From: a bacterium | GTDB lineage: Bacteria; Patescibacteriota; Minisyncoccia; Phycocordibacterales; UBA9973 | NCBI GenBank assembly: GCA_037132055.1 | Contig: JBAXPX010000001.1 | Location: forward strand, 5,424 to 69,423 | Direction: 5' to 3' | DNA length: 64,000 nucleotides | Shown: positions 3,419 to 63,668 of the stretch, piece after piece | How the letters are laid out: each line of letters opens with the position of its first letter | How positions within the stretch are numbered: the first letter of the stretch is position 1 | Made by a program: the position numbers and the translations under genes | Notes under the pieces: model-generated | Told to the model about the DNA's origin: nothing | Seen by the model: the letters and a program-made list of their open reading frames with translations, nothing else | Database searches by the model: none

Positions 3419-4341
3419 TGAAAAAAAAGTCAAAAGTTATCGTAATACTTGGTCAAACGGCTACTGGAAAAAGTGATTTGGCTGTTAAAATAGCCCTTCG
3501 ACTATGCTCAGGACAAGCTCAAAAATACGGCGGAGAAATTATATCTGCTGATTCTAGGCAAGTTTATAAAGACCTTGATATTGGTACGGGCAAAATTACT
3601 AAAAAAGAAATGCAAGGTATTCCGCACCACTTGCTTGATGTAACAAACCCAAAGAAAAAATTTACAGTTGTGGAATATCAGAAAAAAGCAATCTCTGCTA
3701 TGGCAGAGATAATTAAAAAAGGCAAAATCCCTATCATTTGTGGAGGTACAGGTTTTTATATTGATGCCATAACAAAAGGAATAATTTTTCCAGAAATTCC
3801 ACCCAGTAATAAACTTCGAAAAATTCTAGAGAAAAAAACTACCCTACAACTTTTTAAAATGCTCCAAAAATTAGATAAAGCTCGAGCAAAAGATATTAAA
3901 AACAAAAACGAACAGAATAATAGAGTACGACTTATTCGAGCGATTGAAATTGCTAAAACTCTCGGTAAAGTTCCTAAAATCATCAAGGACTCCCCTCCGT
4001 ATAAATTTATAAAAATCGGTCTTTTTGCCCCAGCTGATATTCTAAAAGAAAAAATAAACGAAAGACTTTTTGCAAGAATCAAAGTCGGGATGATTAAGGA
4101 AATAGAAAATTTACATAAAAATGGTTTACCGTGGAAAAGAATGGAAGAACTCGGTCTTGAATATAGATATGTTTCATTATATTTACAAAACAAATTAACA
4201 AAAAAAGAAATGACCGAAAAACTAAATTCTGAAATTTATAAGTATGCAAAACGTCAAATGACATGGTTTAAAAGAGATAAAGATATAATTTGGTTTGATG
4301 CATCAAAAAAGAACTTTAAAAATGTATTACCATATCTATAG
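3418..4341 (+). CDS. miaA: tRNA dimethylallyltransferase MiaA
   Basis: P-loop GQTATGKS, followed by IISADSRQVYKDLDIGTGK and GIPHHLLD. Confidence 0.8.
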   Translation: MKKKSKVIVILGQTATGKSDLAVKIALRLCSGQAQKYGGEIISADSRQVYKDLDIGTGKITKKEMQGIPHHLLDVTNPKKKFTVVEYQKKAISAMAEIIKKGKIPIICGGTGFYIDAITKGIIFPEIPPSNKLRKILEKKTTLQLFKMLQKLDKARAKDIKNKNEQNNRVRLIRAIEIAKTLGKVPKIIKDSPPYKFIKIGLFAPADILKEKINERLFARIKVGMIKEIENLHKNGLPWKRMEELGLEYRYVSLYLQNKLTKKEMTEKLNSEIYKYAKRQMTWFKRDKDIIWFDASKKNFKNVLPYL

Positions 4342-4361
4342 GAATAGATTAAATATAAAAA

Positions 4362-4386
4362 AACCCCAGTAAAAACTGGGGAGTGA
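4362..4386. terminator. Bidirectional rho-independent terminator hairpin (CCCCAG-taaaaa-CTGGGG) shared by convergent miaA and the purD-side transcript
   Basis: Perfect 6-bp GC stem with A/T runs on both sides. Confidence 0.55.
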
Positions 4387-4397
4387 GTTGAAAATAA

Positions 4398-4646
4398 TCA
4401 TTCAGGGGAAATAAAGTTCCCCCTTTTGACCGAGAGCTCTCTGTCCTCCTCGGTGGTCTCATCAGATATGGGAGACCCGAATGTAATCTCTTTGTTTTTT
4501 TCTCCATCTTCTGTGGGGATGTTGTACCCGAGATCCGGAAAGACCGGGATCCCGTCATTCGCTTTCTTTTTTGTCATATCTTTAAGATTAAAGGGTTTTT
4601 GTGCTTTTTTAAATAATACAAAACTTAAACAAAAAGTCAAATACAC
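4398..4646 (-). CDS. Hypothetical small ORF (59-82 aa) downstream of purD; alternatively a non-coding structured RNA (see findings)
   Basis: The ORF lies in a locally GC-rich segment (about 50% GC against a roughly 33% background) that contains several perfect hairpins. Coding status is uncertain. Confidence 0.2.
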   Translation of the reverse strand: MYLTFCLSFVLFKKAQKPFNLKDMTKKKANDGIPVFPDLGYNIPTEDGEKNKEITFGSPISDETTEEDRELSVKRGNFISPE

Positions 4647-4656
4647 ATAGAAAAAA

Positions 4657-5955
4657 TCATTTCCCTATATCTTTACGATATTTCATTCCATGAAACCCCA
4701 TCTTGCTTACAGCTTCATAGGTTTTATTGACAGCCTCTTCTTTGGTTTTACCTGCTGCACTTACTACTAATACTCTTCCTCCGTTTGTGACAAGATTGCC
4801 ATCTTTTAAAATGGTTCCTGCGTGAAATATCACTACCTCTTCATTTTTCTCAGCCAATTTTATCCCATCTATTATTTTCCACTTTTCATAATTTTTTGGA
4901 TATCCATCTGAAACCAAGACAACAACACAAGAAAACATTTTTTTCCAATTTATTTTTATTTGGCTCAGATTCCCATCGATACATGCATCAATTATGTCTA
5001 ATAAATCTGTATCTAAAAGTCTAACATATGCTTCTATGGCCGGGTCACCAAAAGAAGCATTGCATTCTAGTATTTTCATTCCACTATTTGTCCGTATAAG
5101 TTCTGGATAAATTATTCCTAAAAATGTGTTTCCATCACTGCTCATCCCTGACAACATTGGGGTAATTATTGTATCTTCTATTTTTTTAAAAAGCTCGATG
5201 TCAGCAAAAGGAAGCGAAATAATAGCTCCCATACCTTTCGTATTTGGTCCTTTATTATTTTCGTTCAGACGTTTAAAATCTTGCACTATTGGTAATATTG
5301 AATAATTTTTGCCATCAGTAAATGCATGTATAGAAACTTCAGAGCCAAGCAAAAGTTCCTCTATTATTGCTTCGTTTCCGGCTTCACCAAACTTTCTTTT
5401 AATTAAAATATCATCAAGGGCAAAAAGTGCTTCATCTAATTTTTCACATATAAAAACACCATTTCCTGGAGTTAATCCATTTACTTTGATAACTAACGGT
5501 AGTGGATGACTTCTGACATAATCTTCTGCCTTTTTATAGTCATTAAAAATTTCAAATTTTGCAGTAGGCAAATTACAACGTTCCATAAAATGCTTCGCAA
5601 AAGATTTTGAAGATTTTACTTGAGAAGCTTGCTTTGTCGGCCCAAATATTCTTAAACCGTCTTTTTTAAATTCATCAACTATCCCTAATGCAAGCGAACT
5701 CTCTGGTACAACAATGGTCAAATCAACCTTTTCTTTTTTAACAAATTCTTTAAGTTCCAATATGTCTATAGGCCTAATTTGCACATTTGTGCCTAAATCT
5801 TTAGTACCAGCATTCCCTGGTGCAAAATAAAGCTCCCCACACCTTGGTGATTGTGCTATTTTCCAACCCAAAGCATGTTCTCTAGCGCCACCTCCTATTA
5901 TTAAAATCCTTTGTTTCTTAATCATTTGCTTATATTGTAATATAATTTTTAACAA
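4657..5955 (-). CDS. purD: Phosphoribosylamine--glycine ligase PurD
   Basis: ILIIGGGAREHALGWKIAQSP, with ATP-grasp architecture throughout. Confidence 0.85.
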   Translation of the reverse strand: MLKIILQYKQMIKKQRILIIGGGAREHALGWKIAQSPRCGELYFAPGNAGTKDLGTNVQIRPIDILELKEFVKKEKVDLTIVVPESSLALGIVDEFKKDGLRIFGPTKQASQVKSSKSFAKHFMERCNLPTAKFEIFNDYKKAEDYVRSHPLPLVIKVNGLTPGNGVFICEKLDEALFALDDILIKRKFGEAGNEAIIEELLLGSEVSIHAFTDGKNYSILPIVQDFKRLNENNKGPNTKGMGAIISLPFADIELFKKIEDTIITPMLSGMSSDGNTFLGIIYPELIRTNSGMKILECNASFGDPAIEAYVRLLDTDLLDIIDACIDGNLSQIKINWKKMFSCVVVLVSDGYPKNYEKWKIIDGIKLAEKNEEVVIFHAGTILKDGNLVTNGGRVLVVSAAGKTKEEAVNKTYEAVSKMGFHGMKYRKDIGK

Positions 5956-6040
5956 AAAACATCTTTTTAGTTATAAGGTTAGGGCCAAAATTAGCCTTTT
6001 TTTATTTGCTTTTTCCTCTATTGTGTATTAAACTAACATT

Positions 6041-6199
6041 ATGTCACAAGATAGACTTATAAAACTCGCTTGCGGAACTTGTAAGAGGATCAATTATTGG
6101 TCTAGTAAAAACAAGAAGCTTGTCACGAAAAAAATAGAGCTTAAAAAGTACTGCAAATGGTGTCGTAAAAACACAAAACACAAAGAAATTAAAAAGTAA
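6041..6199 (+). CDS. rpmG: 50S ribosomal protein L33 (52 aa); absent from the supplied ORF track because it is under 60 aa
   Basis: Translation MSQDRLIKLACGTCKRINYWSSKNKKLVTKKIELKKYCKWCRKNTKHKEIKK fits the L33 zinc-ribbon signature (C..C…NKK…LELKKYC..C…H.HKE.K). A terminator hairpin follows at 6231-6252. Confidence 0.75.
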   Translation: MSQDRLIKLACGTCKRINYWSSKNKKLVTKKIELKKYCKWCRKNTKHKEIKK

Positions 6200-6394
6200 C
6201 TTTTTAATCTTTTCTAGTGTGATACAATAAATGTGCAGTAAGTGTTTACTGCATGTTCTTTATTTTGAATGGATCAGTTTTTAAAAACAAGATCCTAAGA
6301 AATGTATTAATATTTATATTTTTACATTTTTGTCCAGCTCCACTTTCTTGATTAGGTTAAAAAATAAACTTAATTAAAAAAGTGGAGCTTGGAT

Positions 6395-6465
6395 GGGCGA
6401 TTAGTTAAGTGGTATAACTACGGTCTCCAAAACCGTTGTCGGGAGTTCGATTCTCTCATCGCCCG
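6395..6465 (+). tRNA. tRNA-Trp (anticodon CCA)
   Basis: Acceptor GGGCGAT/ATCGCCC, anticodon stem ACGGU/ACCGU with loop CUCCAAA, and a T-loop TTCGATT. Confidence 0.8.
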
Positions 6466-6512
6466 CTGTATTTTATCTTAAAAGAGTTTTGAATATATGT
6501 TAGAATAAAAAC

Positions 6513-7010
6513 ATGATACTTACTACACATGCTGTAACCGGAGCAACATTGGCCACATTGTTTCCAACTCATCCGATCATTGGTTTTGCTGTCGGTTTTT
6601 CTAGCCATTTTCTTTTAGACGCTATCCCCCATTGGGATTATTCTCTTAGAAGCATGAAAGGTGACGACAAAAATCCCATGAATACAGACATGATCATAAA
6701 CAAGGATTTTTTAAAGGACTTGTTGAAAATCGGAGCTGATGGGGTTTTAGGATTATTGTTTTCTTGTGTTTTACTTGGCATTATCTTTCATAACTCTTTT
6801 TTTATAATTCTATTGGGTGCCATGGCTGGGATGATTCCAGATGCATTACAGTTTTTTTATTTTAAATGGAAACACGAACCGTTATTGAGTTTACAACGTT
6901 TTCATATATGGGTTCACCCAAAAATTAACCTACACGATAGACCGGTTGTTGGTGTTTTATCACAAGTAGTACTTATTTGTTTTGTTGTTTTTATCCTATT
7001 TGTTTCTTAA
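6513..7010 (+). CDS. Inner-membrane metal-dependent hydrolase-like protein (DUF457/YdjM-like)
   Basis: N-terminal MILTTHAVTGATL…HFLLDAIPHWDY pattern and several predicted TM helices. Confidence 0.4.
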   Translation: MILTTHAVTGATLATLFPTHPIIGFAVGFSSHFLLDAIPHWDYSLRSMKGDDKNPMNTDMIINKDFLKDLLKIGADGVLGLLFSCVLLGIIFHNSFFIILLGAMAGMIPDALQFFYFKWKHEPLLSLQRFHIWVHPKINLHDRPVVGVLSQVVLICFVVFILFVS

Positions 7011-7078
7011 AAAGAAATTTTATTTAAATGTTATAATTAATTATGTAATAATTAAAGTTTTCCAACGTCTTTATTTAT

Positions 7079-7810
7079 ATGAAAAAAATATTAATTTATA
7101 TTGTTTTAGTTACAGTTGTTTTAATTGGAATCATTGTTTATTTTGTGAATACTAAGAAGGAAGAAGTTGCTATAATTCCAACACCCAAAGAACCAATTGC
7201 TATGTGCTATCAATATCAAAAAGAAACGTCACGTGGTTTTGTTGACCGTGTATGGCTAGAAATGAATATCACAGGAGACAATGGCAATAAAGTAACAGGA
7301 GAATATCAAACTCTTTTAGCAGAAAAAGATAGCAAAGTAGGTACATTTACTGGGACAATTGGTCCGATGAACCCAGAAATTAGTGGCAGAATCGCTGATG
7401 TTTGGTGGGATTCATTAGGTGAAGGTATGCGGGTAACAGAACAATTGAGAATTTTATTTGGCGAAGGTAGTGCTACTGCCCTAGGTGGTGAAATGGTAGA
7501 TCGAGGAGATGGGACATATATTTACAAAGATATTACAAAATTAACACCTGGGATTCAAATGTCGCAGATTGATTGTGGAAGATTGCAAGACCAAAATCTA
7601 GTTGAAAAATATGTTCGTGAAAATATTAATACAATAGTGAAAGAAAAACCTGTTTTAGGAGGTTCATGGTATGCTACTGTTATAAATATAAATCCATTAA
7701 CAAAAAGTGGAACGATGCTGTTAACCTATGAAGATGGTCACATCCAAAGAAAATCAGAATTTAATTACACAATAAATGGCACGCAAATAATAGTCACTCC
7801 AAAAATATAA
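7079..7810 (+). CDS. Hypothetical protein with N-terminal signal-anchor
   Basis: ORF with a hydrophobic N-terminus and no recognisable motif. Confidence 0.4.
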   Translation: MKKILIYIVLVTVVLIGIIVYFVNTKKEEVAIIPTPKEPIAMCYQYQKETSRGFVDRVWLEMNITGDNGNKVTGEYQTLLAEKDSKVGTFTGTIGPMNPEISGRIADVWWDSLGEGMRVTEQLRILFGEGSATALGGEMVDRGDGTYIYKDITKLTPGIQMSQIDCGRLQDQNLVEKYVRENINTIVKEKPVLGGSWYATVININPLTKSGTMLLTYEDGHIQRKSEFNYTINGTQIIVTPKI

Positions 7811-7889: not shown

Positions 7890-8561
7890 ATGCAAAAAAG
7901 TTATAAATATTTAGGAACTATTAGTGTTTTCTTTGTTTCAGTATTACTAATATCAAATGTAGCCTCGACAAAAATTGTCGATTTTAATTGGTTCACTTTT
8001 GACGGAGGAACTCTTCTTTTTCCACTTAGTTATATTTTTGGAGATATTCTTACTGAGGTTTATGGATATAAAAGAACACGACCTGTGATTTGGCTTGGCT
8101 TTTTTATGGCACTTTTAATGTCTATTATTTTTATAATAGTTGGCAAGTTGCCATCTGCTCCAGGATGGAACAACCAAATTGCATATGATGCAATACTAGG
8201 ATTGACCCCAAGAATTGTGGTTGCTAGTCTTGCTGCATATTTCTGTGGAGAATTTTCTAATTCATTTGTATTAGCAAAAATGAAAATATGGACAAGAGGC
8301 AAAATGCTTTGGATGAGGACAATAGGATCTACTATAATAGGAGAATTTGTAGATAGTATTATTTTTATCACAATAGCGTTTTGGGGGATTCTACCAAATT
8401 CATTATTAATAACACTAATAATCTCAAATTACATATTTAAAACTGGAATTGAGATATTATTTACTCCGGTTACATATAAAATAATCAATTTTCTTAAGAA
8501 AAAAGAAAACGAGGATTATTACGATATAAATACAAAATTTAATCCCTTTTCTATACAATAA
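7890..8561 (+). CDS. Queuosine-precursor transporter family protein (YhhQ/DUF165, VUT family)
   Basis: LLFPLSYIFGDILTEVYGYKRTRPVIWLGFF resembles the YhhQ core, and the protein is polytopic. Confidence 0.55.
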   Translation: MQKSYKYLGTISVFFVSVLLISNVASTKIVDFNWFTFDGGTLLFPLSYIFGDILTEVYGYKRTRPVIWLGFFMALLMSIIFIIVGKLPSAPGWNNQIAYDAILGLTPRIVVASLAAYFCGEFSNSFVLAKMKIWTRGKMLWMRTIGSTIIGEFVDSIIFITIAFWGILPNSLLITLIISNYIFKTGIEILFTPVTYKIINFLKKKENEDYYDINTKFNPFSIQ

Positions 8562-9684
8562 CTCTCGGCAAGAGTGGGTTCAAACGAGTTACAACTTCAT
8601 AATTTATAGTATCTATTTTTTTGGCGATATCTTCTGCTGTTATTTCTTTATCTCCTTGCTTACCTATAAGTACAACTTCATCTTCTATGGATATATCTTT
8701 CAAGTGAGTTACATCTACCACAAACATATTCATTGCTACTCGCCCTAAAATTTTACATTTTGTACCTTTTATTAAAATTTCTCCAATATTTGATAATCCT
8801 CTATCGTATCCATCGGCATAACCTATAGGCACCACAGCTATTTTAATGGGTTCATAAGTCATATAAGTCAAACCATAACCCACAGTATGCCCTGCTGGTA
8901 AATTTTTTACTTGAGCAACCTTCGTTTTAAAAGATAATACTGGTTTTAATTCAAGTTTTTCCTTATATAGATATTTTATATGCTCACTCGGCCACAAGCC
9001 ATATATCCCTATACCTAAACGGACAAAAGTATTTAAACTTTTGTTTTTTTCATAAACTAAAAGCCCGGAAGTGGCTGAAATATGGGTTTGTAAATTTTTA
9101 AAGCCAAATTTTTCTGCTAATTTTATTGCTTCTTCATATTTTTTTATTTGTTTTTGTGCATGGGTGAAATTGTTTGTGTCTTCTATGTTTGCAAAGTGCG
9201 CATATAAACCAGTAAGTTTTACATTTTTACAATTTTTTACTTCTTTGAAGAATTCTTCTAATTCTTCTTTCATAAATCCTTCTCTCCCTAAATACGCATC
9301 TACTGATGCATGAACTTCTTGTTTTATTTTTAATTTTTTAGCTAGCTCATTTATTTCTTTTAATTTTTCAATAGAAAAAACGGACAAAATACAATCGAGT
9401 TTTATGGCTTCAGACAAATCTTCTTTTTGAATATAACCCAAAACAAATGTCTTTTTCTTTGTTACTTTTCGCAATAATTTAAGCTCTGAAAAACTATTTA
9501 CTTGAAAATAATCAGAATGTGGTTCTAAAATTTTAGCGACTTCATTTTGCCCATGACCATACGCATTCCCTTTTATTACTGCAATAATCTTCGTATTTTT
9601 TGATACTGATTTTAGTGCTTTGAAATTGTGTATCAAATTTTTCTCAGATAACTCTATATAAGAAATAGGCAAGTTTTTTTGCAT
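8551..9684 (-). CDS. alr: Alanine racemase
   Basis: PLP-lysine motif AVIKGNAYGHG. Confidence 0.8.
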   Translation of the reverse strand: MQKNLPISYIELSEKNLIHNFKALKSVSKNTKIIAVIKGNAYGHGQNEVAKILEPHSDYFQVNSFSELKLLRKVTKKKTFVLGYIQKEDLSEAIKLDCILSVFSIEKLKEINELAKKLKIKQEVHASVDAYLGREGFMKEELEEFFKEVKNCKNVKLTGLYAHFANIEDTNNFTHAQKQIKKYEEAIKLAEKFGFKNLQTHISATSGLLVYEKNKSLNTFVRLGIGIYGLWPSEHIKYLYKEKLELKPVLSFKTKVAQVKNLPAGHTVGYGLTYMTYEPIKIAVVPIGYADGYDRGLSNIGEILIKGTKCKILGRVAMNMFVVDVTHLKDISIEDEVVLIGKQGDKEITAEDIAKKIDTINYEVVTRLNPLLPRVIV

Positions 9685-9688
9685 CTTA

Positions 9689-10777
9689 TTAAACAGTAGT
9701 TTTTAATTTTTGGTCTCTTTTAAATCGTGCTATAGCAAGGTCAATCAATTTATCTAAGAGTTTCGGTAAGGAAAGTCCAGATGCTTCCCACATTTTTGGA
9801 TACATACTTATCGCTGTAAAACCAGGTAATGTATTTATTTCATTCACGATAATTTTATTATTTTTTGTCACAAAAAAATCTACTCGTCCCATACCTTCAC
9901 AACTTAAAGTTTTAAAAACTTTTACAGCCATCATTTGTATTTCTTTTATTGTCTTTTTGGGTAATTCTGCGGGTATCTTGCATACTGATTTATCGTCTAT
10001 ATATTTTGAATTATAAGAATAAAAATCAGCATTTGAAATTATTTCTCCAGGCAGAGATGCCAAAGGATTTTCATTTCCCAAAACAGAGCATTCTATTTCC
10101 CTACCATTGATATTTTCTTCAATGACAACTTTATTATCATACTGAAATGCATCTTTTAACCCAGCATAAAATTCTTTTTCGTTTTTTACTTTATGAATAC
10201 CAACCGAAGATCCAAGATTGGCAGGTTTAATAAATAAAGGTAAACCTAATTTTTTTGAAATTTCTTTAAATGAAATCTTCGCTGTTTTTTCCACTGCTAT
10301 AAATTTACCAATCGGAATACCAGCTTCTCGAAAAAGTCTTTTCATCACGTCTTTATCCATTCCGACAGCCGAACCAAGCACGCTCGGACCAATAAAAGGT
10401 ATTCCAGCCAATTTTAAAAATCCCTGCATACTACCATCCTCACCAAATGGACCATGCAATACTGGGAAAATAACGTCTAGTTTTTCACAGTTTTTCAAAT
10501 CACGCATACTCACTAAAGCACCAGATCCCTCGGTAGTAAGAATTACTTCATTATTTGATTTATTGAGTTTGATTAGTTTTGGGTCATTATTATTTAATAA
10601 ATAATTTGAAATATTACCCAATAACCACTTGCCATTTTTATCTATACCAATCGGTATAATTTCATATTTCTTCTTATCTAAAAAATTAATAACATTTTTA
10701 GCAGACTGCAAAGAAACTTCGTGCTCTGCAGATTTACCACCGAAAAGTACGCCTATTTTTAGCTTCTTTTTTGCCAT
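9689..10777 (-). CDS. ddl: D-alanine--D-alanine ligase
   Basis: KIGVLFGGKSAEHEVSLQSA at the N-terminus and an ATP-grasp C-terminus. Confidence 0.85.
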   Translation of the reverse strand: MAKKKLKIGVLFGGKSAEHEVSLQSAKNVINFLDKKKYEIIPIGIDKNGKWLLGNISNYLLNNNDPKLIKLNKSNNEVILTTEGSGALVSMRDLKNCEKLDVIFPVLHGPFGEDGSMQGFLKLAGIPFIGPSVLGSAVGMDKDVMKRLFREAGIPIGKFIAVEKTAKISFKEISKKLGLPLFIKPANLGSSVGIHKVKNEKEFYAGLKDAFQYDNKVVIEENINGREIECSVLGNENPLASLPGEIISNADFYSYNSKYIDDKSVCKIPAELPKKTIKEIQMMAVKVFKTLSCEGMGRVDFFVTKNNKIIVNEINTLPGFTAISMYPKMWEASGLSLPKLLDKLIDLAIARFKRDQKLKTTV

Positions 10778-10860: not shown

Positions 10861-12582
10861 TTAATATACTTCTTGTTGGTAACATCTTTCACAATAAATA
10901 ATCTCTGGTCTATCTGGAGCGTAACTTGTTTCAAATTCATTGAAACATCCTTCTCTCATGCATTTTCGATGCCAGAGTTTTGGAGGTAATATTTTTGCAA
11001 ATCTTTCATAGTATCTGCAATTAGAACATTTGTTTGGAATTGGAATGTTGTGTTTTTTATAAAACTGAAACTCATCTTTGGTTAAACGAAAAGCTGTCAT
11101 ACATTGATGGTTGCACTTGCCTTCATCCAAGCAACCTAAAACTTCATCAAGAATTTCTTCTTTCACATCTTTGATATTATCTGGGATATCTTCGGCTTTA
11201 ATACTAATTGTATAATTTTTTGGCTCAGGGTCTTTCCATCTATATCCCATTTTTAATGCTTCTTCTTTGGTAAGTGGTAAAAAATCCTGCGCACAAGTTT
11301 CGTTATACGCGAACGCAGATAATTCTATGGGGAAAAATTCCCCATACTTATATACCCTCCCACCTTTATCAATATATGGCATTTCTTCCATGTGTTTTTT
11401 AATCTTTTTAATTAGTTCTTCATATTCTTTTTTCTTATATATTTTATTTAAAATCACATTTTCTTTATTTTTTATACTTATACACCCAAAAAGTTTTTTT
11501 GATGACATGCAATATTCTAGATACTCTCCATCTCGAACCTGATTCATTGCTGAGTATGAAAATTTAACATTATAATCATTCAAACATCCGGTAGTATACT
11601 CATATATTAGCTCTGACCATCCACCAAAAAATGTGTCCAAGGAATCTTTCATTCCAATAGAACGATAATTATATTTTAAATTTTCACTATTAGAACACTC
11701 AAAACAATCTTTGCAATTCTTCGCGTTTAACAAATTATTCCCTGTAGAATCAACTGATTTTGTGATATTAGCAAAACGATAGATAGCTTTTTTACAAAGA
11801 TCATCAAATTCTTTTATTAAAATTCCTCTAGATTTTCTACTTCCTAAATTTAACTTTTCAATCTCCTTAAAATAATCTTCCTTAGAATATTTCTTATTTC
11901 TAAAATAAAATTCTTTATTTCTTAAGTTAGAAGAGAGGACGCAATTACTACAATTTACGCAATCAATTAAAAAATACGAATCTAGACAGTTCCTCGAAAG
12001 AATAAGATTTTGAGAATTATAATTTTTTTCACACTCAATATTTTCATATAAACCGTTCGACTCTATTATGTTATAACTATCTAAGATATCATATGATTTA
12101 TCAACAATTCTTGAATAGAATATGTTTTCTGATCCTAAAACAACTGAAGTGGATAAATAAACATTTTTTGACTCACCTACCATATTTGAATAAGGAGAAT
12201 TCAAAGTACTTCTCTGCCAAAGACCAAGGCGAGGAACAACAAGAGAAAGATCTTTCCATTGCTCAAAAAAGTTTTTAGAAAAGTCATAATCACGCCCGTA
12301 GGAAGTCGCATCCCAATTATCAGAATACCAGCATTCTTTGCAATATACAGGGGAAATAGCATCTTTGGGATACATAGATATCATATCTTTTTGACATAAA
12401 TCACAAGCGCGTTTATATAAAGTCCGTTCATTCCGCCAAGTCATTCGTCTTTGGAATCTGCATTCTGGACAAAATGTCGGAGGAGGAACTTTTATGCGTT
12501 CATAAAATCCAAAATCATCACTAGTTATTTCAAAATTTGTTTTGCAATTCTGACATTCTTTATTCATAGACCATCTATCCAT
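10861..12582 (-). CDS. Large cysteine-rich zinc-ribbon repeat protein (intact copy), function unknown
   Basis: 573 aa with more than 40 Cys in CxxC and CxxCxxC arrays. N- and C-terminal modules share an internally duplicated zinc-ribbon motif (FxITxDDFxFYE..VPPPTFCPECR and FRLTKDEFQFYKKHNIPIPNKCSNCR). It is paralogous to the split copy at 12820-14568. Confidence 0.6.
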   Translation of the reverse strand: MDRWSMNKECQNCKTNFEITSDDFGFYERIKVPPPTFCPECRFQRRMTWRNERTLYKRACDLCQKDMISMYPKDAISPVYCKECWYSDNWDATSYGRDYDFSKNFFEQWKDLSLVVPRLGLWQRSTLNSPYSNMVGESKNVYLSTSVVLGSENIFYSRIVDKSYDILDSYNIIESNGLYENIECEKNYNSQNLILSRNCLDSYFLIDCVNCSNCVLSSNLRNKEFYFRNKKYSKEDYFKEIEKLNLGSRKSRGILIKEFDDLCKKAIYRFANITKSVDSTGNNLLNAKNCKDCFECSNSENLKYNYRSIGMKDSLDTFFGGWSELIYEYTTGCLNDYNVKFSYSAMNQVRDGEYLEYCMSSKKLFGCISIKNKENVILNKIYKKKEYEELIKKIKKHMEEMPYIDKGGRVYKYGEFFPIELSAFAYNETCAQDFLPLTKEEALKMGYRWKDPEPKNYTISIKAEDIPDNIKDVKEEILDEVLGCLDEGKCNHQCMTAFRLTKDEFQFYKKHNIPIPNKCSNCRYYERFAKILPPKLWHRKCMREGCFNEFETSYAPDRPEIIYCERCYQQEVY

Positions 12583-12803
12583 CTAAAAAATCTGGCTTCT
12601 AATTTTAGATATTTACCCTCCATCTTTTTAAACCACTTTGTTAATGATTTTATCTTTCCTTCATCTCTCAAGATTCCATACACAAAAACAGAAAAAGCTA
12701 TAAAAAGACCCAGTAATGCTAAAATAAACATAACTGTAAAATTAAAATAATACCATACCATTCCTGCCACAATTAATACCAATAAAACAGCTCTTAAATC
12801 CAT
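12564..12803 (-). CDS. Small two-helix membrane protein, unknown function
   Basis: 79 aa, strongly hydrophobic, lying between the two cysteine-rich paralogs and overlapping the start of the downstream gene. Confidence 0.4.
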   Translation of the reverse strand: MDLRAVLLVLIVAGMVWYYFNFTVMFILALLGLFIAFSVFVYGILRDEGKIKSLTKWFKKMEGKYLKLEARFFRWIDGL

Positions 12804-12819
12804 ATTTTTATATTATATA

Positions 12820-14568
12820 CTAATAAACTTCTTGTTGATAACAACGTTTGCAATAAACTATTTCTGGTCTTTCGGGATTATAACTTGTTTCAAACTCATT
12901 TTTACATTGACCTTCGTGTCCATGGTTTGATTCCTCACACACGCAAGCTCTATGCCAGAGTTTAAGTGGTTGACGTTTTAAAAGTCTTTCATAATTACGG
13001 CAATTAGGGCAAAGAGTTGGTAGTGGTATATTGTTTGCTCGATAAAAAGAAAGTTCATTTGGAATAATTTTAAAAGCAGTCGTACATTGTTGATTGCATT
13101 TTCCTTCATGCGCACAAGCAATCACTTCATTTAAAATATCATCGCTGACCAAATTAATGCTCCCTGGTAATTCATTAGATAATACTGTAGGAATATAATT
13201 TTTTGTATCTGGCTCTTTCCAATTATAACCAATAGCTAGAACTTCTTCTTTAGTTTTTGGGAAAAATTGTTGAGCTATTGTTTCATTATAAGCAAAAGGC
13301 AACATATCACATGGAAAATATTCTCCATAACGCAAGACTCTGCCTTTTTTGTCAGTAAATGGTAAAGAGTTCATTTGTTCTTTTATTTTTGGAACCAATT
13401 CTTCATATTCCTCCCTTGAATACTGTTTATTTAAAATACAATATTGTTTTTTATGAAGCCCAACACATCCAAATAAATTTGAAGAAGAACGGCAATTGAT
13501 GCAATATTCTGCTTTTATTAGTTGATCCCAAGATTCATTACAAAATAAAACTGACGAGCATTGTCTACCAATACTACAAGATTCATAAATGAGTTCACTT
13601 CCGAGTCCCCAATAGGTGTAATCCATAACGTCTTTTGCCTTAAAAATGCCATATAAATATTTTCCATCTTCAACTTCATCACAATTGAAAGACATTTTGA
13701 CTGTTTTTGAATTTTCAATCCAATTTCCTGAGGAATTTACTGAATGATGCTCTACCATACATGGAACAATATATTTCAAAGACTCTTGTGTCACTTTTTC
13801 TTTTATTCTTTCAAAATCGACTCTGTTATAAATTTTAAATTCAGAAATTTTTTGTAAATATTCTTCTCTTCCATACTATTTGTTAAAAATGCAATAGTTT
13901 TTATTTCTTAAGTTAGTACACCCAAAGCAATTCTGACAATTTCGACAATTTAACAAAAAGTATGAATCAATGCACTCATTACACTCTCTAGAGTATTTCA
14001 AGCCGTTACAATTATAGCAATCAATGCATTCATAACATTTTTCGCATTTGTGAATGTTGTAGCAATCCATACAATTTTTTGTATCCCAATACGAATCTCC
14101 ATACAAACAGTCTTCGTTTCTATTGCTAGCAAAAATAAGATAGCAGTTTTTCAAATCACTCACTCGATTGGCATACTCACTGTTTGTATTAAAACCTTGT
14201 CTTATTATTCCGAGCCGTGGCACATCTTTGAATAATTCTTCATATTGTTCAAAAAAGGTTTGGGAAAAGTTAAAATCTCTTCCATATTCTATTCCATCAA
14301 AATCATCAGAATGAAAACACTCGAAACAATAAACTTTATATTGACTGTCTTTTGGATAAATTAATATTTTTTCTTCGCCGCACGAATCACATTCTCGTTT
14401 ATAAAGAGCCCTTTCATTTCGCATTATTAAGCGTCGAATTAACCGACATTCCGGACAAAAAGTCGGTGGAGGAACTTTAATCTTTTCGTAGAAATTAAAA
14501 TCTTCAGGCTCTATAGTGAAAGAACCACGACAGTTTTGACATATTACATTTTGTGGTTCATGCTCCAT
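12820..14568 (-). pseudogene. Second copy of the cysteine-rich zinc-ribbon protein, interrupted by an in-frame TAG
   Basis: ORFs 13876-14568 (N-terminal part) and 12820-13794 (C-terminal part) are collinear with the intact paralog. The frame continues across the stop (…NLRNKNYCIFNK*YGREEYLQKISEFK…), and the TAG aligns with an AAG Lys codon in the paralog. Confidence 0.6.
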
Positions 14569-14866
14569 ATCTTTTTTGTCCCGATCCCGACTCTTTGAGT
14601 CGTGGATCGTGGATCCTCGATTCCTTAAAATTTATTAATTTCTCAATAGCTGCGCGCTTCTTCCAGCTTTTCACTTGATATTCTCTTTTTCTCGCTTCTG
14701 ATAATGTTTTATACTCTTCAGTATATACGATTTTCCAAGGTAAATGAACCTTCGTAGATTTTACTAAGCCTGAATTATGCTGATTAAATCTCTTGTTAAT
14801 ATCCGCGCAGCTACCTACATAATACCTCCCATCTTTTATTGAATTTAGTATGTAAAGGTAAAACAT
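14558..14866 (-). CDS. Small stand-alone GIY-YIG nuclease-family protein (YhbQ-like)
   Basis: YLYILNSIKDGRYYVGSCADINKRFNQHN…KREYQVKSWKKRAAIEKLI. The C-terminal ~20 residues are encoded by a degenerate copy of the intergenic repeat GAGTCGTGGATC. Confidence 0.7.
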   Translation of the reverse strand: MFYLYILNSIKDGRYYVGSCADINKRFNQHNSGLVKSTKVHLPWKIVYTEEYKTLSEARKREYQVKSWKKRAAIEKLINFKESRIHDPRLKESGSGQKRYGA

Positions 14867-14924: not shown

Positions 14925-16064
14925 TTAAAATAGTTTAATTACATCATGATAAGTGACAAGAAGCATTAAAATAATTAAAATCGCAAAGCCAACCATATTG
15001 GCAGTGTTTGCAATTTTTGGATTTATGCGAGAACCTTTTATTTTTTCAATAAGTAAGAAAAGCAATCTCCCTCCATCGAGAGCAGGAAATGGAATTAAAT
15101 TTATTATTGCTAAATTTACCGATATCAGTGCCATAAATGACATTAAATACACGAAGCCAAATTTATATGCATCCCCCACAATACTCACCATCCCCACAGG
15201 CCCCGTAACTGAAGAAAAGCTTCCTTTTCCCTGTATACCACTCGCTATTAGCGTATAAAGGCCCACCACAGTGCCTTTTGTTACGTTCCAGTCTAACTTT
15301 AAACCTTCCCAAAAAGCTCTTAAAACAGGCAATTTTGCCGTTCCTATAAGATCCATAGCAATACCGATGCTCGGTTTGTCTCCTGCTGTAGCAGAAACAA
15401 GAATCACGTTTGTGGTATATATATTTTTATCTTTTCCGCGAGTATATCCAAATTCTATTTTTTCATTTGGATGAGATACGATAAAGGACTTTAATGTATC
15501 AGGATTTAAATCAACAAGAAGAGAGTCTTTACCGCTTTTTACTGAAACAATTTTATCACCTCCCTTTATGCCCGCATTTTCAGCTGGGGATTTTGGAAGT
15601 ACTGAAACAATAACTAAATTTACATTTTCAAGGGTATATCCTTTTGGCTGACTACTAACCGAAGTAGGAAGTCCAGAAATAAAACAAATAGAAAATAAGA
15701 ACCAAGCTAATAAAAAATTGGCAAAAATACCAGCAAATAATACGATAGCTTGTTTGTATTTTGGCTTACTTATCAAACTTCTTTCAAAATCAACCTTTTG
15801 GGGTGTTTCTTTTTTATCTAAAAATCCAACTTCTACTAGATCGGCTTCGTCTATGTTTTCACCAAAAATTTTCACAAATCCACCAAAAGGCAAGGCGTTT
15901 ATTGAATATTCAGTTTCTCCTCGTTTCCAACTAAATAATTTTGGTGGAAAACCAAAACCAAATTCATCAACCCTGATACCAAATCTTTTCGCAGTAAAAA
16001 AATGCCCAAATTCATGAACTAAAACCAAGACTAGTAGAATTATAACAAAAATTAAAATATTCAT
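14925..16064 (-). CDS. rseP: RseP-type site-2 zinc metalloprotease (M50) with PDZ domain
   Basis: HEFGHFFTAK HExxH motif in the first TM helix, with a C-terminal LDGG region. Confidence 0.8.
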   Translation of the reverse strand: MNILIFVIILLVLVLVHEFGHFFTAKRFGIRVDEFGFGFPPKLFSWKRGETEYSINALPFGGFVKIFGENIDEADLVEVGFLDKKETPQKVDFERSLISKPKYKQAIVLFAGIFANFLLAWFLFSICFISGLPTSVSSQPKGYTLENVNLVIVSVLPKSPAENAGIKGGDKIVSVKSGKDSLLVDLNPDTLKSFIVSHPNEKIEFGYTRGKDKNIYTTNVILVSATAGDKPSIGIAMDLIGTAKLPVLRAFWEGLKLDWNVTKGTVVGLYTLIASGIQGKGSFSSVTGPVGMVSIVGDAYKFGFVYLMSFMALISVNLAIINLIPFPALDGGRLLFLLIEKIKGSRINPKIANTANMVGFAILIILMLLVTYHDVIKLF

Positions 16065-60155: not shown

Positions 60156-61790
60156 CATTTGGAAATTGGGTTCCCCGCGAAAAAATGCGTCGGGGCGAAG
60201 CACCGACGACTGGGCTGAATTCCCGCCAAACCCCGCCCCCGCAAGGATTTCCCACACGGCGGAGCGCTCTTCGTTACCAATACAAAATATATGAATCAAA
60301 CCAAAAAATTTTTTATATATACTCGCAAGTCGACGGACGACAAAGACCATCAGATTAGAAGTATTTCTGATCAGCTTTCCGAATTGAAAGAATTAGCGTT
60401 GAAAGAACGATTAGAAATAGTTGATATCTTTGTCGAGAAGCAGTCTGCCAAAATACCAGGCCGTCCGATATTTAACGAAATGCTAGAACGTATGGAGAAA
60501 GGCGAAGCATCTGGTATTTTGGCGTGGCATCCTGATAGACTTGCGAGAAACTCGGTAGATGGAGGAAAAGTCATCTACCTCGTTGATACCGAAGTTATAA
60601 AAGATTTAAAATTTTCGACTTTTTGGTTTGATCCGACACCGCAAGGCAAATTTATGCTTTCAATCGCTTTTTCCCAATCCAAATATTATGTGGATAATTT
60701 ATCAGAGAATATTAAACGCGGACAAAGAAACAAAGTGAAGGAAGGAATATGGCCTCAAAATGCTCCGCTTGGTTATGTAAATAAAGAAGGTGGTGGAATT
60801 GAGCCAAATATTATTCTTGCTCCACTTATTAAAAAAGCATTTGAGGCCTATGCAACAGGCAACTTCACTTTGCGACAAGTCCGCGATAAATTTAACGCAC
60901 TTGGTTTAACAGGAAAAAGCGATGGAGACCTTTCGGTGTCTAATTATCAAAAACTTTTAAGAAATCCGATTTTTACGGGAATGATGAGATATAACGGCGA
61001 AATTTACGAAGGCAAACACGAACCGATTATTTCAAAGAAACTTTTTGATTCCGTTGCCGAAGTGATGAGTAAAAAATCTAAATCGCATAGCAAAGGATTG
61101 AAGCCGTATATTTATCGGGGATTTTTCCGTTGTGACGAATGTGGCTGTTTTATCACTACCGAACAACAAAAAGGTCATAACTATTTACGATGTACGAAAC
61201 GGAAAAATCCTTGCAATCAGAAATATACACGAGAAGAACTCATCACTTCCCAAATACAAGAAGAAATCAAAAAAGTTTCTTTGCCACTCGATTGGTTAGA
61301 ATGGATGATTGGTGAAAATAAAAAAGACCAATCACCCGAAGTAGAATCGAGTACGCTTTTTGTTGATAATGTAAAATCCGACATTTCTCTTTTAGAATCT
61401 AAAATTGAGAAGCTGATGACGATGTATTTAGAAAATGCCCTAACACTCGACGAATATCGCGATATGAAAAATAAGCTGATGAACGAAAAACAGCTTCTCA
61501 AAGAGAAATTGTCGGATTTAGAACAAAAAGCGAATAATCGGTTCGAACTTACCGAAAAGTTTTTGAAATTCAATATGGAATTGGTAAACGATAGAACAAA
61601 TGAAGAAAATATTCATTTGTTCAAAAAAGTCGGTTCGAACTTTAGAATAAAAGATCGAACACTCCTTTTTGAGCGCTCCGCCGTGTGGGAAATCCTTGCG
61701 GGGGCGGGGTTTGGCGGGAATTCAGCCCAGTCGTCGGTGCTTCGCCCCGACGCATTTTTTCGCGGGGAACCCAATTTCCAAATGTTGCGG
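60150..61790 (+). mobile_element. Recombinase unit 1: a large serine recombinase gene bounded by 120-bp perfect inverted repeats (IR-L 60150-60269, IR-R 61671-61790). IR-R abuts the 3' end of tRNA-Ser.
   Basis: The two 120-bp segments are exact reverse complements of each other. The recombinase ORF starts 21 nt after IR-L and reads into IR-R. Confidence 0.6.
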
Positions 61791-61814
61791 AGGGTACAGG
61801 ATTTGAACCTGTGA
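60291..61814 (+). CDS. Large serine recombinase (resolvase N-terminal domain, recombinase domain, zinc ribbon); its C-terminal ~48 codons are encoded by IR-R
   Basis: YTRKSTDDKD (catalytic Ser), WHPDRLARN, the recombinase-domain stretch LLRNPIFTGMMRYNGEIYEGKHEPIIS, and the zinc ribbon CDECGCF…YLRCTKRK. Confidence 0.75.
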   Translation: MNQTKKFFIYTRKSTDDKDHQIRSISDQLSELKELALKERLEIVDIFVEKQSAKIPGRPIFNEMLERMEKGEASGILAWHPDRLARNSVDGGKVIYLVDTEVIKDLKFSTFWFDPTPQGKFMLSIAFSQSKYYVDNLSENIKRGQRNKVKEGIWPQNAPLGYVNKEGGGIEPNIILAPLIKKAFEAYATGNFTLRQVRDKFNALGLTGKSDGDLSVSNYQKLLRNPIFTGMMRYNGEIYEGKHEPIISKKLFDSVAEVMSKKSKSHSKGLKPYIYRGFFRCDECGCFITTEQQKGHNYLRCTKRKNPCNQKYTREELITSQIQEEIKKVSLPLDWLEWMIGENKKDQSPEVESSTLFVDNVKSDISLLESKIEKLMTMYLENALTLDEYRDMKNKLMNEKQLLKEKLSDLEQKANNRFELTEKFLKFNMELVNDRTNEENIHLFKKVGSNFRIKDRTLLFERSAVWEILAGAGFGGNSAQSSVLRPDAFFRGEPNFQMLRRVQDLNL

Positions 61815-61874
61815 TCCACTTTCGCGGATTCCGGTTTTCGAAACCGGCGCCTTCAACCTCTCAGCCAACCCTCC
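61788..61874 (-). tRNA. tRNA-Ser (anticodon CGA), long variable arm
   Basis: Reverse complement GGAGGGTTGGCTGAGAGGTTGAAGGCGCCGGTTTCGAAAACCGGAATCCGCGAAAGTGGATCACAGGTTCAAATCCTGTACCCTCCG. The D-arm matches the type-II Ser tRNA pattern. Confidence 0.75.
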
Positions 61875-61936: not shown

Positions 61937-62008
61937 GGCCCTATCGTCTAACGGTTAGGACATCGGCTTTTCAAGCCGGTAATCCGGGTTCGATTCCCGG
62001 TAGGGTCA
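61937..62008 (+). tRNA. tRNA-Glu (anticodon UUC)
   Basis: GGCCCTATCGTCTAACGGTTAGGACATCGGCTTTTCAAGCCGGTAATCCGGGTTCGATTCCCGGTAGGGTCA. Confidence 0.75.
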
Positions 62009-63668
62009 CCTAAAGAGAGATTGTGGAAATTAGAAATATGGAGCGGGTTTTCAAAATGAAAACTCGCACTGGGTAGCCCGCTTCCGCCCTTTGCGGAAGC
62101 GACAAAATCCCAAATCTCGCCAGAATGCATATGAATTGTTTTGTCCTTGATTTCAGGGTTAGAGCCAATTTTTTGAAAAAATTGCTTCCATTCAATTTGA
62201 TTGTCAGTTTTTTCCAAATCAACGGCTTCTTTCAAGGACAAAACCAAAATCCGCAAGGGTTCGATCCAATACTTTCTCTGTTGTCCAAAATCTTTCAAAC
62301 TTTCCTCAATTCCAGCTTTTTGACGAAGTAAAATATCTTTTCGTTCCAAATATTGTGAGCGTTCAATATCTCCGTCTAAATATATAGAAACAAGTTTATC
62401 TAGTTTTTCTTTAATTTCGGAAAGTTCAGATTTTAGATTTTGGACAACATTTCCTTTTTCTGAAATTGATTCTTGTTCCCATTCGTCAATTTTCTTTTCC
62501 ATTTTTTCAATTTCAGAAAAAGGAATTGACGCTTTTTGAAGCGAAGTTTTGATTTGTTCGGAGAGTGTGGATTCTGAAAGATACGGCTGAGAGCAAAAAC
62601 CTTTCTTTTTTGTGCAACGATAATAAATATAACGAGTACCAAAACGATTGATAGAATATTGAGCCGTAATCATACTTCCACACTCGCCACATTTGGCAAA
62701 ACCGAGAAAATGAAATGGATGAGCGATTTTAGATTTTCTCGGTTTTTGCCGAGACTTCAAAACTTTCTGCACTGCTTCAAAAAGTGTCGGAGAAAGTATT
62801 GGTTCAAAGCTTCCATTGTGCCATTCGTTATGATGTTTGATAAATCCTAAATATGCACGATTGGTAAGTAATCGCACAATGCAAGCTTTGGCAAGTGGCT
62901 TTCCTATTTTTGTGACAAGTCCTAAATCCGCCAAATACTTCGCTAGTCCTTCAATAGTGTAAATATTTTTTGAATATTCTTCAAAAGCTCTTACTACAAT
63001 TTTTGAATATACAGGATGAGGTTCAATAGTTTTAGTTTTTAAGTTATTTATATATCCATACGGAGCTTTTGTCAGCCATTCCCCACGGCGAAGTTTTTGG
63101 CGGATTCCTCGTTTTACATTTTCAACCAAGTTGTCAGAAAAATATTTGGATTGTCCGAAAGCCACTTGCAACATGAATTTCCCTTGCGGAGTTGGTTCAA
63201 ACCAAAACTGCGGAAAGCGCAAAGAAACAATTTTGCCAGTATCAACAAGATAGATAACTTTTCCACCATCAACACTATTTCTCGCTAATCGGTCAGGATG
63301 CCATGCTAATATTCCATTTGCTTCACCTTTTTCTATCTTATCTATCATTCTGGCAAATTGTTTTCGTCCTGTGGTCTTTGCGCTTTTCGATTCGGTAAAA
63401 GTTTCTTTTACTGAAATATTTTCTCTGCGAGCATATTCTTTCAATTCAAAAAGTTGAGCTTCAATACTCATTACTTGTTTATCGTCATCTTCCGTTGATT
63501 TTCTCGCGTAGAGAAAATATTTGTTTTGATTTGAGGAATTCATATGCATTCTGGCGAGATTTGGGATTTTGTCGCTTCCGCAAAGGGCGGAAGCGGGCTA
63601 CCCAGTGCGAGTTTTCATTTTGAAAACCCGCTCCATATTTCTAATTTCCACAATCTCTCTTTAGGTGA
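62006..63668 (-). mobile_element. Recombinase unit 2: a paralogous large serine recombinase gene bounded by ~132-bp perfect inverted repeats (IR-L 62006-62137, IR-R 63537-63668). IR-L begins within the last 3 nt of tRNA-Glu(UUC).
   Basis: Exact reverse-complement identity over about 130 bp. The repeat covers the recombinase start codon (ATGCATATG) at one end and the tRNA 3' end (TCACC) at the other. Confidence 0.6.
62138..63549 (-). CDS. Large serine recombinase, paralog of the 60291-61814 gene. The track's ORF extends to 61948 across IR-L and the tRNA; the true stop is uncertain.
   Basis: YARKSTEDDDKQ (catalytic Ser), GILAWHPDRLARNSVDGGKVIYLVDT (identical to the stretch in unit 1), recombinase domain, and the zinc ribbon CGECGSMITAQ…YYRCTKKK. 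Confidence 0.7.

Follow-up and report, generated by a model that had tools for sequence, protein, structure and literature searches.

Why is a large, conserved gene interrupted by a single in-frame amber codon when the rest of its frame is unbroken? This question is raised by a 64-kb window from a bacterium of the Patescibacteriota (positions 5,424 to 69,423 of contig JBAXPX010000001.1, GenBank assembly GCA_037132055.1), the stretch from which the gene map, stop codon usage, and tRNA set described here were drawn. Two adjacent genes of this window, which we call A and B, encode large cysteine-rich proteins, and the frame of B contains one internal TAG (Table 1). Our analyses place A and B in a family that appears specific to Paceibacteria (Parcubacteria) and assign them to different ancient paralog lineages within it; the TAG is probably a young loss-of-function or pseudogenizing mutation in B.

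Two paralogs and an in-frame amber codon

A and B align with each other over their full length (46% identity, E = 7e-173), which bears out the description of them as collinear tandem paralogs in an earlier, sequence-only reading of this locus. That reading also held that the frame continues past the stop, and B is indeed a frame of 582 codons with exactly one internal stop. Two of its details needed correction: more than 40 cysteines had been counted in the 573-amino-acid (aa) protein, but A has 30 and it is B that has 44, and the TAG had been set opposite an AAG codon of A, whereas its pairwise partner is AAA (Lys), AAG is the codon before it, and the family has Gln in this column. No third copy of the family was found by tblastn across the window. 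Protein A is 100% identical to protein WCO07_00090 of an NCBI metagenome-assembled genome, and since both this protein and the ENA gene call use Met6 (position 12567), A probably begins there, giving a protein of 568 aa and an ATGA overlap onto the 79-aa open reading frame (ORF) between the paralogs. Among the matches listed, A matched 119 other proteins at 58 to 75% identity over at least 88% of its length (mostly at least 97%), and B matched 119 other proteins at 52 to 84% identity; intact B orthologs of 570 to 600 aa were found at 84 to 55% identity. A deviated at 0 and B at 2 of the 67 columns that are at least 90% conserved across the family, and A retains all of the invariant cysteines.

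The sequence-only reading had offered sequencing error, programmed read-through, and recent pseudogenization as explanations of the split. Metagenome-assembled genomes do carry single-base errors, and the change here is of one base, as would be expected if the true codon were CAG or AAG. Using the 79-aa ORF as a handle, we recovered this region from further public assemblies. Over 5.8 kb, ENA assembly ERZ27300010 and the window showed 100% identity, TAG included; ENA assembly ERZ27300065 also had the TAG, its sole difference over 3.9 kb being a single-nucleotide polymorphism (SNP) in the GIY-YIG gene upstream of B (window position 14818; G in the window and C in ERZ27300065, as minus-strand bases); and the Logan assembly of the single run SRR7053310 matched the region with the same TAG. 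The sequence around the stop, AACAAATAGTATGGA, and its identical flanks were common to all three (L167, L168, and L169 in our locus set). The SNP suggests that these assemblies are distinct and sample a nearly clonal population. Given that the identical TAG recurs in three further assemblies, an assembly or consensus error is very unlikely, and the artefact explanation, to which we give hardly any credence, is largely refuted already.

The history of the codon was traced in an alignment of 240 homologs, in which the TAG column holds Gln in 110 of 120 B-clade and 81 of 120 A-clade proteins. In the 205 copies for which DNA was available, the codon at this column is CAA in 77 and CAG in 32. Since CAG is the codon at this position in each of the three nearest B orthologs for which DNA was available (75% identity), a single C-to-T transition from CAG to TAG is the simplest history. 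The two sides of the stop are equally well preserved: of the conserved columns, B departs from the family at 1 of the 28 that precede the stop and at 1 of the 39 that follow it, values that equal the family medians (1 and 1). No second lesion was found in B, and the downstream 351 codons are free of defects. B therefore has neither the multiple lesions nor the relaxed constraint of a pseudogene, and if it is one, it is a very young one. Because both halves are unblemished, either the mutation is young or the pieces are still selected. The TAG lies within the motif N-K-Q-Y-S-K-E-E-Y, which by the alignment and by both structural models described below forms the junction between the first beta-solenoid and the helix that follows it. 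A scan near the TAG gave 27 promoter-like sites (22.6 +/- 5.4 in shuffled sequence) and 4 terminator-like sites (1.6 +/- 1.3 in shuffled sequence), with no clear excess of either.

This organism does use TAG to terminate genes. B itself ends in TAG, exactly at the conserved C terminus of the family (...CYQQEVY), and alr and several other long ORFs are also terminated by TAG. In the 61 window ORFs of at least 150 codons (measured from stop to stop), the stop is TAA in 42, TAG in 10, and TGA in 9. No tRNA with a CUA anticodon was found among the six tRNAs of the window. For comparison with relatives, we used 86 family loci from other genomes, which together with the window amount to 1.45 Mb. Uninterrupted frames were found in 194 of the 197 full-length family copies in these loci; the other three each have a single TAA or TAG with the frame otherwise intact (Table 1), and none of the 197 has a stop at the codon 231 position. 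A frequency of about 1.5 to 2% of copies with sporadic nonsense codons is consistent with chance mutation in genomes rich in AT and not with a programmed event.

These results bear on the possibility that the amber codon is read through, in a programmed or tolerated way, by a suppressor or near-cognate tRNA (inserting Gln, Lys, or Tyr) to give full-length B. An in-frame TAG within an intact conserved gene is what is seen in programmed amber decoding, whether by pyrrolysine, suppressor tRNAs, or TAG-reassigned codes, and here the 351 codons past the stop are unbroken and keep the residues conserved in the family. Low-level near-cognate read-through of UAG is, moreover, general in bacteria. The locus differs from programmed amber decoding, however, in that TAG ends conserved genes (alr and others, as well as B at its conserved C terminus), the orthologous codon is an ordinary Gln (CAG or CAA), and stops do not recur at this site, the other interrupted copies having TAA or TAG at unrelated positions; the window's tRNAs also lack a CUA anticodon. 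Read-through thus appears quite improbable, and with TAG as a normal terminator and 194 of 197 relatives uninterrupted, its programmed form, as offered by the sequence-only reading, is not borne out. Functional fission of the gene, in which a 230-aa N-terminal piece and a reinitiated C-terminal piece of about 312 to 324 aa would form a two-chain B, deserves somewhat more weight. The stop falls exactly at the junction of solenoid 1 and helix 1 in both models, past the stop B is intact and no less conserved than any family member, the allele persists in the population and is common to several assemblies, and gene callers place in-frame starts downstream, for example at GTG 13794. Yet no comparable split at this junction was found in the 197 other copies, the first in-frame start is 27 codons past the stop, so that most of helix 1 would be lost, and no clear Shine-Dalgarno sequence was seen by eye before the downstream start, although no ribosome-binding-site scan was run. 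Recent mutation explains the intactness of the downstream part equally well, and we consider fission unlikely.

We therefore favor a recent nonsense mutation, the form in which the pseudogenization suggested by the sequence-only reading is upheld by the CAG codons of the closest orthologs and by two halves without other defects. A C-to-T transition would have converted the conserved Gln codon CAG to TAG in the B gene of this population; translation would stop after 230 residues, corresponding to solenoid 1 and the zinc module ahead of it; the 351 codons beyond the stop would still be intact because the mutation is recent; and the loss of B would be tolerated through paralog redundancy in a multicopy family whose array here was already reduced. 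Three considerations count against this reading. The perfect preservation of the downstream 351 codons is equally expected of two functional pieces; the tRNA check spans the 64-kb window, and a suppressor tRNA elsewhere in the genome is conceivable; and both the TAG allele and the predicted truncation of B are read from assembled DNA. If the reading holds, the codon is an ordinary young nonsense allele whose main use would be to mark, in nature, the loss of function of a single paralog lineage.

A Paceibacteria family of zinc ribbons and beta-solenoids

The family to which A and B belong is large. At E <= 1e-3, we obtained at least 4,656 matches with A as the query and at least 7,987 with B, and an exhaustive scan of representatives clustered at 50% identity returned 3,594 clusters, including 1,395 at E <= 1e-30. 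Named sources were Nomurabacteria, Giovannonibacteria, Liptonbacteria, Jorgensenbacteria, Staskawiczbacteria, Sungbacteria, and RAAC4_OD1_1, all within the Paceibacteria/Parcubacteria branch of the Patescibacteria; the exceptions were one Burkholderiales record and many entries labeled simply "bacterium." The sequence-only reading did not recognize the family, and our searches agree with it: scans of A, both halves of B, the 79-aa ORF, and the GIY-YIG protein against Pfam, NCBIfam, PHROGs, and PADLOC gave no model for the core of the protein, the PHROGs scan returning a single weak match to a model of unassigned function (phrog_15341, E = 1e-5) and the PADLOC scan no match to a defense system for A, B, or the GIY-YIG protein. 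Searches of the Protein Data Bank (PDB) with single sequences and with a profile gave marginal LIM-like matches only, and a literature search on cysteine-rich, zinc-ribbon, beta-helix, and tandem-paralog proteins of Parcubacteria or Patescibacteria found no paper describing the family. In a survey of protein families of the candidate phyla radiation (CPR), those enriched in Parcubacteria were mostly hypothetical proteins (10.1101/335083). An origin in phages was considered and set aside, a tblastn search of 50,697 phage records being empty; the label "putative phage protein" on one relative is thus unsupported. With its thousands of members limited, judging from the labeled matches, to one major CPR branch, and with orthologs 55 to 84% identical across candidate phyla, the family merits attention as a tractable target in the conserved "dark" proteome of uncultivated bacteria.

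AlphaFold2 produced confident models of A (mean predicted local distance difference test score [pLDDT], 87.1; predicted template modeling score [pTM], 0.87) and of the intact B ortholog P0121 (pLDDT, 87.0; pTM, 0.88), and the two models agree. In the model of A, two N-terminal zinc ribbons (residues 6 to 48 and 56 to 85) are followed by a helix (residues 105 to 115), a first beta-solenoid (about residues 120 to 230) with its helices (residues 234 to 265), a second beta-solenoid (residues 267 to 377) with its helix (residues 384 to 400), an acidic domain (about residues 403 to 482; median net charge, -6), and two C-terminal zinc ribbons (residues 484 to 528 and 537 to 572). The metal sites at both ends were invariant in 111 sequences: C10/C13/C38/C41 and C60/C63/C81/C84 at the N terminus, and C484/(H486, C490)/C494/C519/C522 and C541/C546/C564/C567 at the C terminus. 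The sequence-only reading had noted that the N-terminal motif is repeated at the C terminus, and HHalign confirmed this (residues 11 to 84 against 492 to 567, the two double fingers matching with a probability of 99.3%, E = 9e-21). It also matched solenoid 1 and its helix to solenoid 2 and its helix (probability, 99.5%; E = 8e-23). These profile-profile matches within the protein show that it arose by internal duplication.

At the positions of the additional solenoid cysteines, other paralogs have V, I, L, S, or N, which suggests that these cysteines belong to the core "ladder" and are not obligate metal ligands. An iron-sulfur or extra metal site at C199/C208/C211/C214 of solenoid 1 was considered and is unlikely, as solenoid 2 keeps only two of these cysteines and the other ladder cysteines are variable. 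The sequences, read by eye with no predictor run, revealed no signal peptide or transmembrane segment; in combination with the four Cys4 sites, this suggests that the proteins of the family, about 570 to 600 aa long, are cytoplasmic.

Foldseek searches with the model returned generic solenoids and isolated zinc ribbons from the PDB (best E = 0.95) and, from BFVD, a best match at E = 0.009 over 65 columns, such that the modeled architecture appears to have no real structural neighbor among solved structures. Among the beta-solenoid and left-handed beta-helix proteins with which we compared it were hexapeptide-repeat acyltransferases, gamma-carbonic anhydrases, curli CsgA, and the ice-binding proteins of insects and plants; the combination expected of a hexapeptide-repeat left-handed beta-helix enzyme, namely, the hexapeptide signature or a Pfam Hexapep match together with a significant structural match, was not found. 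The architecture also resembles, in part, the treble-clef or CxxC-x17-CxxC zinc fingers modeled as zf_Tbcl (PF13451), zf_Tbcl_2 (PF23477), and TIGR04272, since the four terminal zinc modules of the family are of this type. At E <= 0.1, zf_Tbcl_2 was matched in 41 and zf_Tbcl in 30 of 86 diverse members, these terminal fingers giving the sole recurrent Pfam matches, and the relative P0180 scored 32.8 bits against zf_Tbcl_2 (gathering score, 27). A and B themselves gave no significant score against either model; their modules align clearly with those of the relatives. These finger models span some 35 to 45 residues each, are silent on the core of about 400 residues, and have no established function. 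Small Methanosarcina (archaeal) proteins that carry a CxxC-x17-CxxC finger bind zinc, as determined by inductively coupled plasma mass spectrometry (PMC12704099). The pair of C-terminal zinc sites also matched LIM or double zinc-finger proteins weakly (E = 0.007 by profile against the PDB), and one relative reached 25.1 bits against a LIM cutoff of 22.9 bits; these matches are marginal and cover about 55 residues, and the bacterial context and architecture of the family are unlike those of eukaryotic LIM adaptors.

Arrays of ancient paralogs and their possible function

Family genes commonly occur in arrays. At least two copies were found in 53 of the 86 loci, nearly all on the same strand, and the spacers between copies in relatives are 0 to 100 nucleotides (nt). 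The largest arrays hold 10 copies (L035) and 12 copies (L063); in the latter, positions 1 to 22008 of the locus (Patescibacteria group bacterium AH-259-L05, JALLOO010000001.1, 7201 to 29208) consist of twelve consecutive same-strand family genes, and since the first and last of these are cut by the ends of the 22-kb locus, the array is longer than 12. In very small genomes, arrays of at least 12 ancient paralogs can thus span more than 22 kb. Copies within an array share 33 to 60% identity, and the best match of each copy is in another genome; given that the copies in L063 and L035 are only 33 to 57% identical, they are ancient paralogs rather than products of recent amplification. Clustering likewise placed each orthogroup once per locus (12 members in 12 loci for the A group and 13 in 13 for the B group). 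In the syntenic relative, whose B ortholog is 76% identical, genes for MreB, holB, RRF, and an M50 protease are followed directly by six copies, which implies that the two-copy array of the window is a reduced one.

The neighbors of the arrays tend to differ among orthogroups, the gene beside a given group often being grpE, a PaaX-like gene (A and B groups), or a gene for an ATPase. Soluble VirD4/TraD/TrwB-like ATPases were encoded by 29 genes in 22 of the 86 loci, mostly immediately adjacent to family genes; two sizes were seen, about 500 and about 700 aa, the longer of which ends in a zf_Tbcl_2/TIGR04272 CxxC-x17-CxxC finger, as in the family. The order rplM, rpsI, grpE, array, PaaX-like gene, dnaK is conserved in 12 to 16 loci, with dnaJ present in 7, so that the array is inserted within the usual grpE-dnaK chaperone locus.

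What the family does can be proposed only tentatively. The proteins may be zinc-capped rigid scaffolds or adaptors that act as sets of paralogs, possibly with the VirD4/TraD-like ATPases; this is our best guess, but one that we regard as doubtful. Distinct paralogs may act together, perhaps as hetero-oligomers, and they may work with those ATPases that bear the same zinc finger. In its broadest form, which is similarly speculative, the family would be a core set found throughout Paceibacteria, comprising at least 10 ancient paralog lineages that each occur about once per genome in conserved order and form a hetero-oligomeric cytoplasmic machine or scaffold of zinc-capped beta-solenoid rods with soluble VirD4/TraD-like ATPases. 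If so, it could be, for example, a machine for handling imported nucleic acid or for cell organization in host-dependent, ultrasmall bacteria. The amber allele would in that case be a natural knockout from which the B lineage is seen to be dispensable. Several points tell against these proposals: they derive, with low confidence, from the type of modeled fold, the pattern of paralogy, and the gene neighborhood; 64 of the 86 loci have no such ATPase within three genes of the array; and the charges of the protein segments are unremarkable, with no strong sign of the DNA mimicry or strong nucleic-acid binding that we also considered. The placement between grpE and dnaK leaves open a role in proteostasis.

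Two further features of the neighborhoods concern metals. Genes for CutA1 (divalent-cation tolerance) lie one to three genes from family genes in 8 loci (e.g., L052, positions 3651 to 3956), and in L001 (positions 3549 to 7511) a family gene is followed by genes for a copper P-type ATPase, an HMA protein, a cupredoxin-like protein, and a CsoR-like repressor. These neighbors may reflect a metal theme or coincidence, and they leave open a metal-related role for the family.

Table 1. Positions of the genes, protein segments, and comparison loci discussed in the text. Positions are those of the window or, where another locus is named, of that locus.
Feature	Locus	Position	Strand	Remarks
M50 (RseP-type) protease gene	Window	14925-16064	minus	
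GIY-YIG gene, 102 aa	Window	14558-14866	minus	PF01541, E = 7e-17; directly upstream of family gene (same strand, overlapping or within 31 nt)
Paralog B, 582-codon frame with single internal TAG, 44 Cys	Window	12820-14568	minus	Own terminator TAG at 12820-12822
B N-terminal fragment, 230 aa	Window	13879-14568	minus	Double zinc-ribbon module and solenoid 1; expected translation product
In-frame amber codon, codon 231 of B	Window	13876-13878	minus	End of solenoid 1, just before helix 1
B downstream part, 351 codons	Window	12820-13875	minus	Gene calls start at GTG 13794 (324 aa, NCBI, P0210) or further in (312 aa, ENA/Logan)
79-aa hydrophobic ORFan between paralogs	Window	12564-12803	minus	From ORF list
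Paralog A, 573 codons, 30 Cys	Window	10861-12582	minus	From ORF list; intact
A residues 10-84, N-terminal double zinc-ribbon module	Window	12331-12555	minus	Cysteines invariant; matches zf_Tbcl/zf_Tbcl_2 in relatives
A residues 120-266, beta-solenoid 1 and N-x-Q-Y-S-K-E-E-Y helix	Window	11785-12225	minus	Model and HHalign
A residues 267-402, beta-solenoid 2 and helix	Window	11377-11784	minus	Internal duplicate of solenoid 1 unit; model and HHalign
A residues 403-482, acidic alpha/beta domain, motif YGEFFP..SPFAYNET	Window	11137-11376	minus	Conserved columns, pLDDT >90
A residues 483-573, C-terminal double zinc-ribbon module	Window	10864-11136	minus	Last finger passes zf_Tbcl_2 (PF23477) gathering score in relatives
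ddl	Window	9689-10777	minus	Downstream of A
alr	Window	8551-9684	minus	Downstream of ddl
Interrupted family gene	L030	18824-20590		Single TAA, codon 384; frame otherwise intact
Interrupted family gene	L052	52-1785		Single TAA, codon 508; frame otherwise intact
Interrupted family gene	L069	19617-21305		Single TAG, codon 336; frame otherwise intact
GIY-YIG gene next to family gene	L040	8013-8279		Same strand, overlapping or within 31 nt
GIY-YIG gene next to family gene	L081	9717-9989		Same strand, overlapping or within 31 nt
VirD4/TraD-like ATPase genes (examples)	L004	16182-18326, 20219-21733		
VirD4/TraD-like ATPase gene (example)	L002	13182-15284		
VirD4/TraD-like ATPase gene (example)	L069	17248-18765		
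grpE-array-dnaK order	L002, L003, L004, L008, L010, L011, L012, L030, L038, L044			Array of 2-4 copies; PaaX_M-like gene on opposite strand

The GIY-YIG gene, the 79-aa ORF, and other window features

The sequence-only reading had made a small GIY-YIG nuclease and a 79-aa membrane protein part of the cluster. A GIY-YIG protein does head it: the 102-aa product matched PF01541 with 62 bits (cutoff, 22.6; E = 7e-17) over residues 1 to 71 (model positions 1 to 74 of 78), and the 3' end of its gene overlaps the start of B by 11 nt. It scored 23 bits against the NCBIfam model of group I intron endonucleases, far below the cutoff of 56, and homing endonucleases such as I-TevI have a DNA-binding extension that is missing from it. 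The 79-aa product is hydrophobic and does lie between the copies, but its matches to membrane-protein families, the only ones it has, are weak (one to the ZorA model at E = 0.016). It found only itself among 5.8 billion proteins and had no homolog in the 86 family loci; its ORF fills a 250-nt spacer that is missing in relatives and overlaps the start of A. We conclude that it is an ORFan of uncertain reality rather than a conserved partner.

The overlapping or abutting arrangement of these genes on one strand could point to a single module, functional or mobile, that comprises the nuclease, both paralogs, and the 79-aa protein, and all three GIY-YIG genes of this type in the 1.45 Mb lie immediately upstream of a family gene. 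With the window counted, however, only 3 of 87 family loci have such a gene, and in the reverse direction none of 80 metagenome loci carrying the closest GIY-YIG relatives had a family gene (60 of these loci extend at least 600 nt downstream). The 79-aa protein is, moreover, an ORFan, and in the syntenic relative the GIY-YIG gene is absent and the M50 gene stands directly before the array. A module of this kind is therefore highly improbable, and with related arrays lacking both genes, their assignment to the cluster is not supported. The GIY-YIG gene appears to be a sporadic, probably mobile small gene inserted between the M50 gene and the array, and it and the 79-aa ORFan are incidental, lineage-specific insertions. 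The three-for-three adjacency of GIY-YIG and family genes is a minor observation for which we have no explanation.

Downstream of A, ddl and alr lie on the same strand, as the sequence-only reading had reported. An Rfam scan of the window found tRNAs only. Two of these, tRNA-Ser (positions 61787 to 61874, minus strand) and tRNA-Glu (positions 61937 to 62010, plus strand), overlap two long stop-to-stop ORFs at their ends (positions 60219 to 61814, plus strand, and 61948 to 63597, minus strand), and these overlaps are probably ORF-boundary artefacts.

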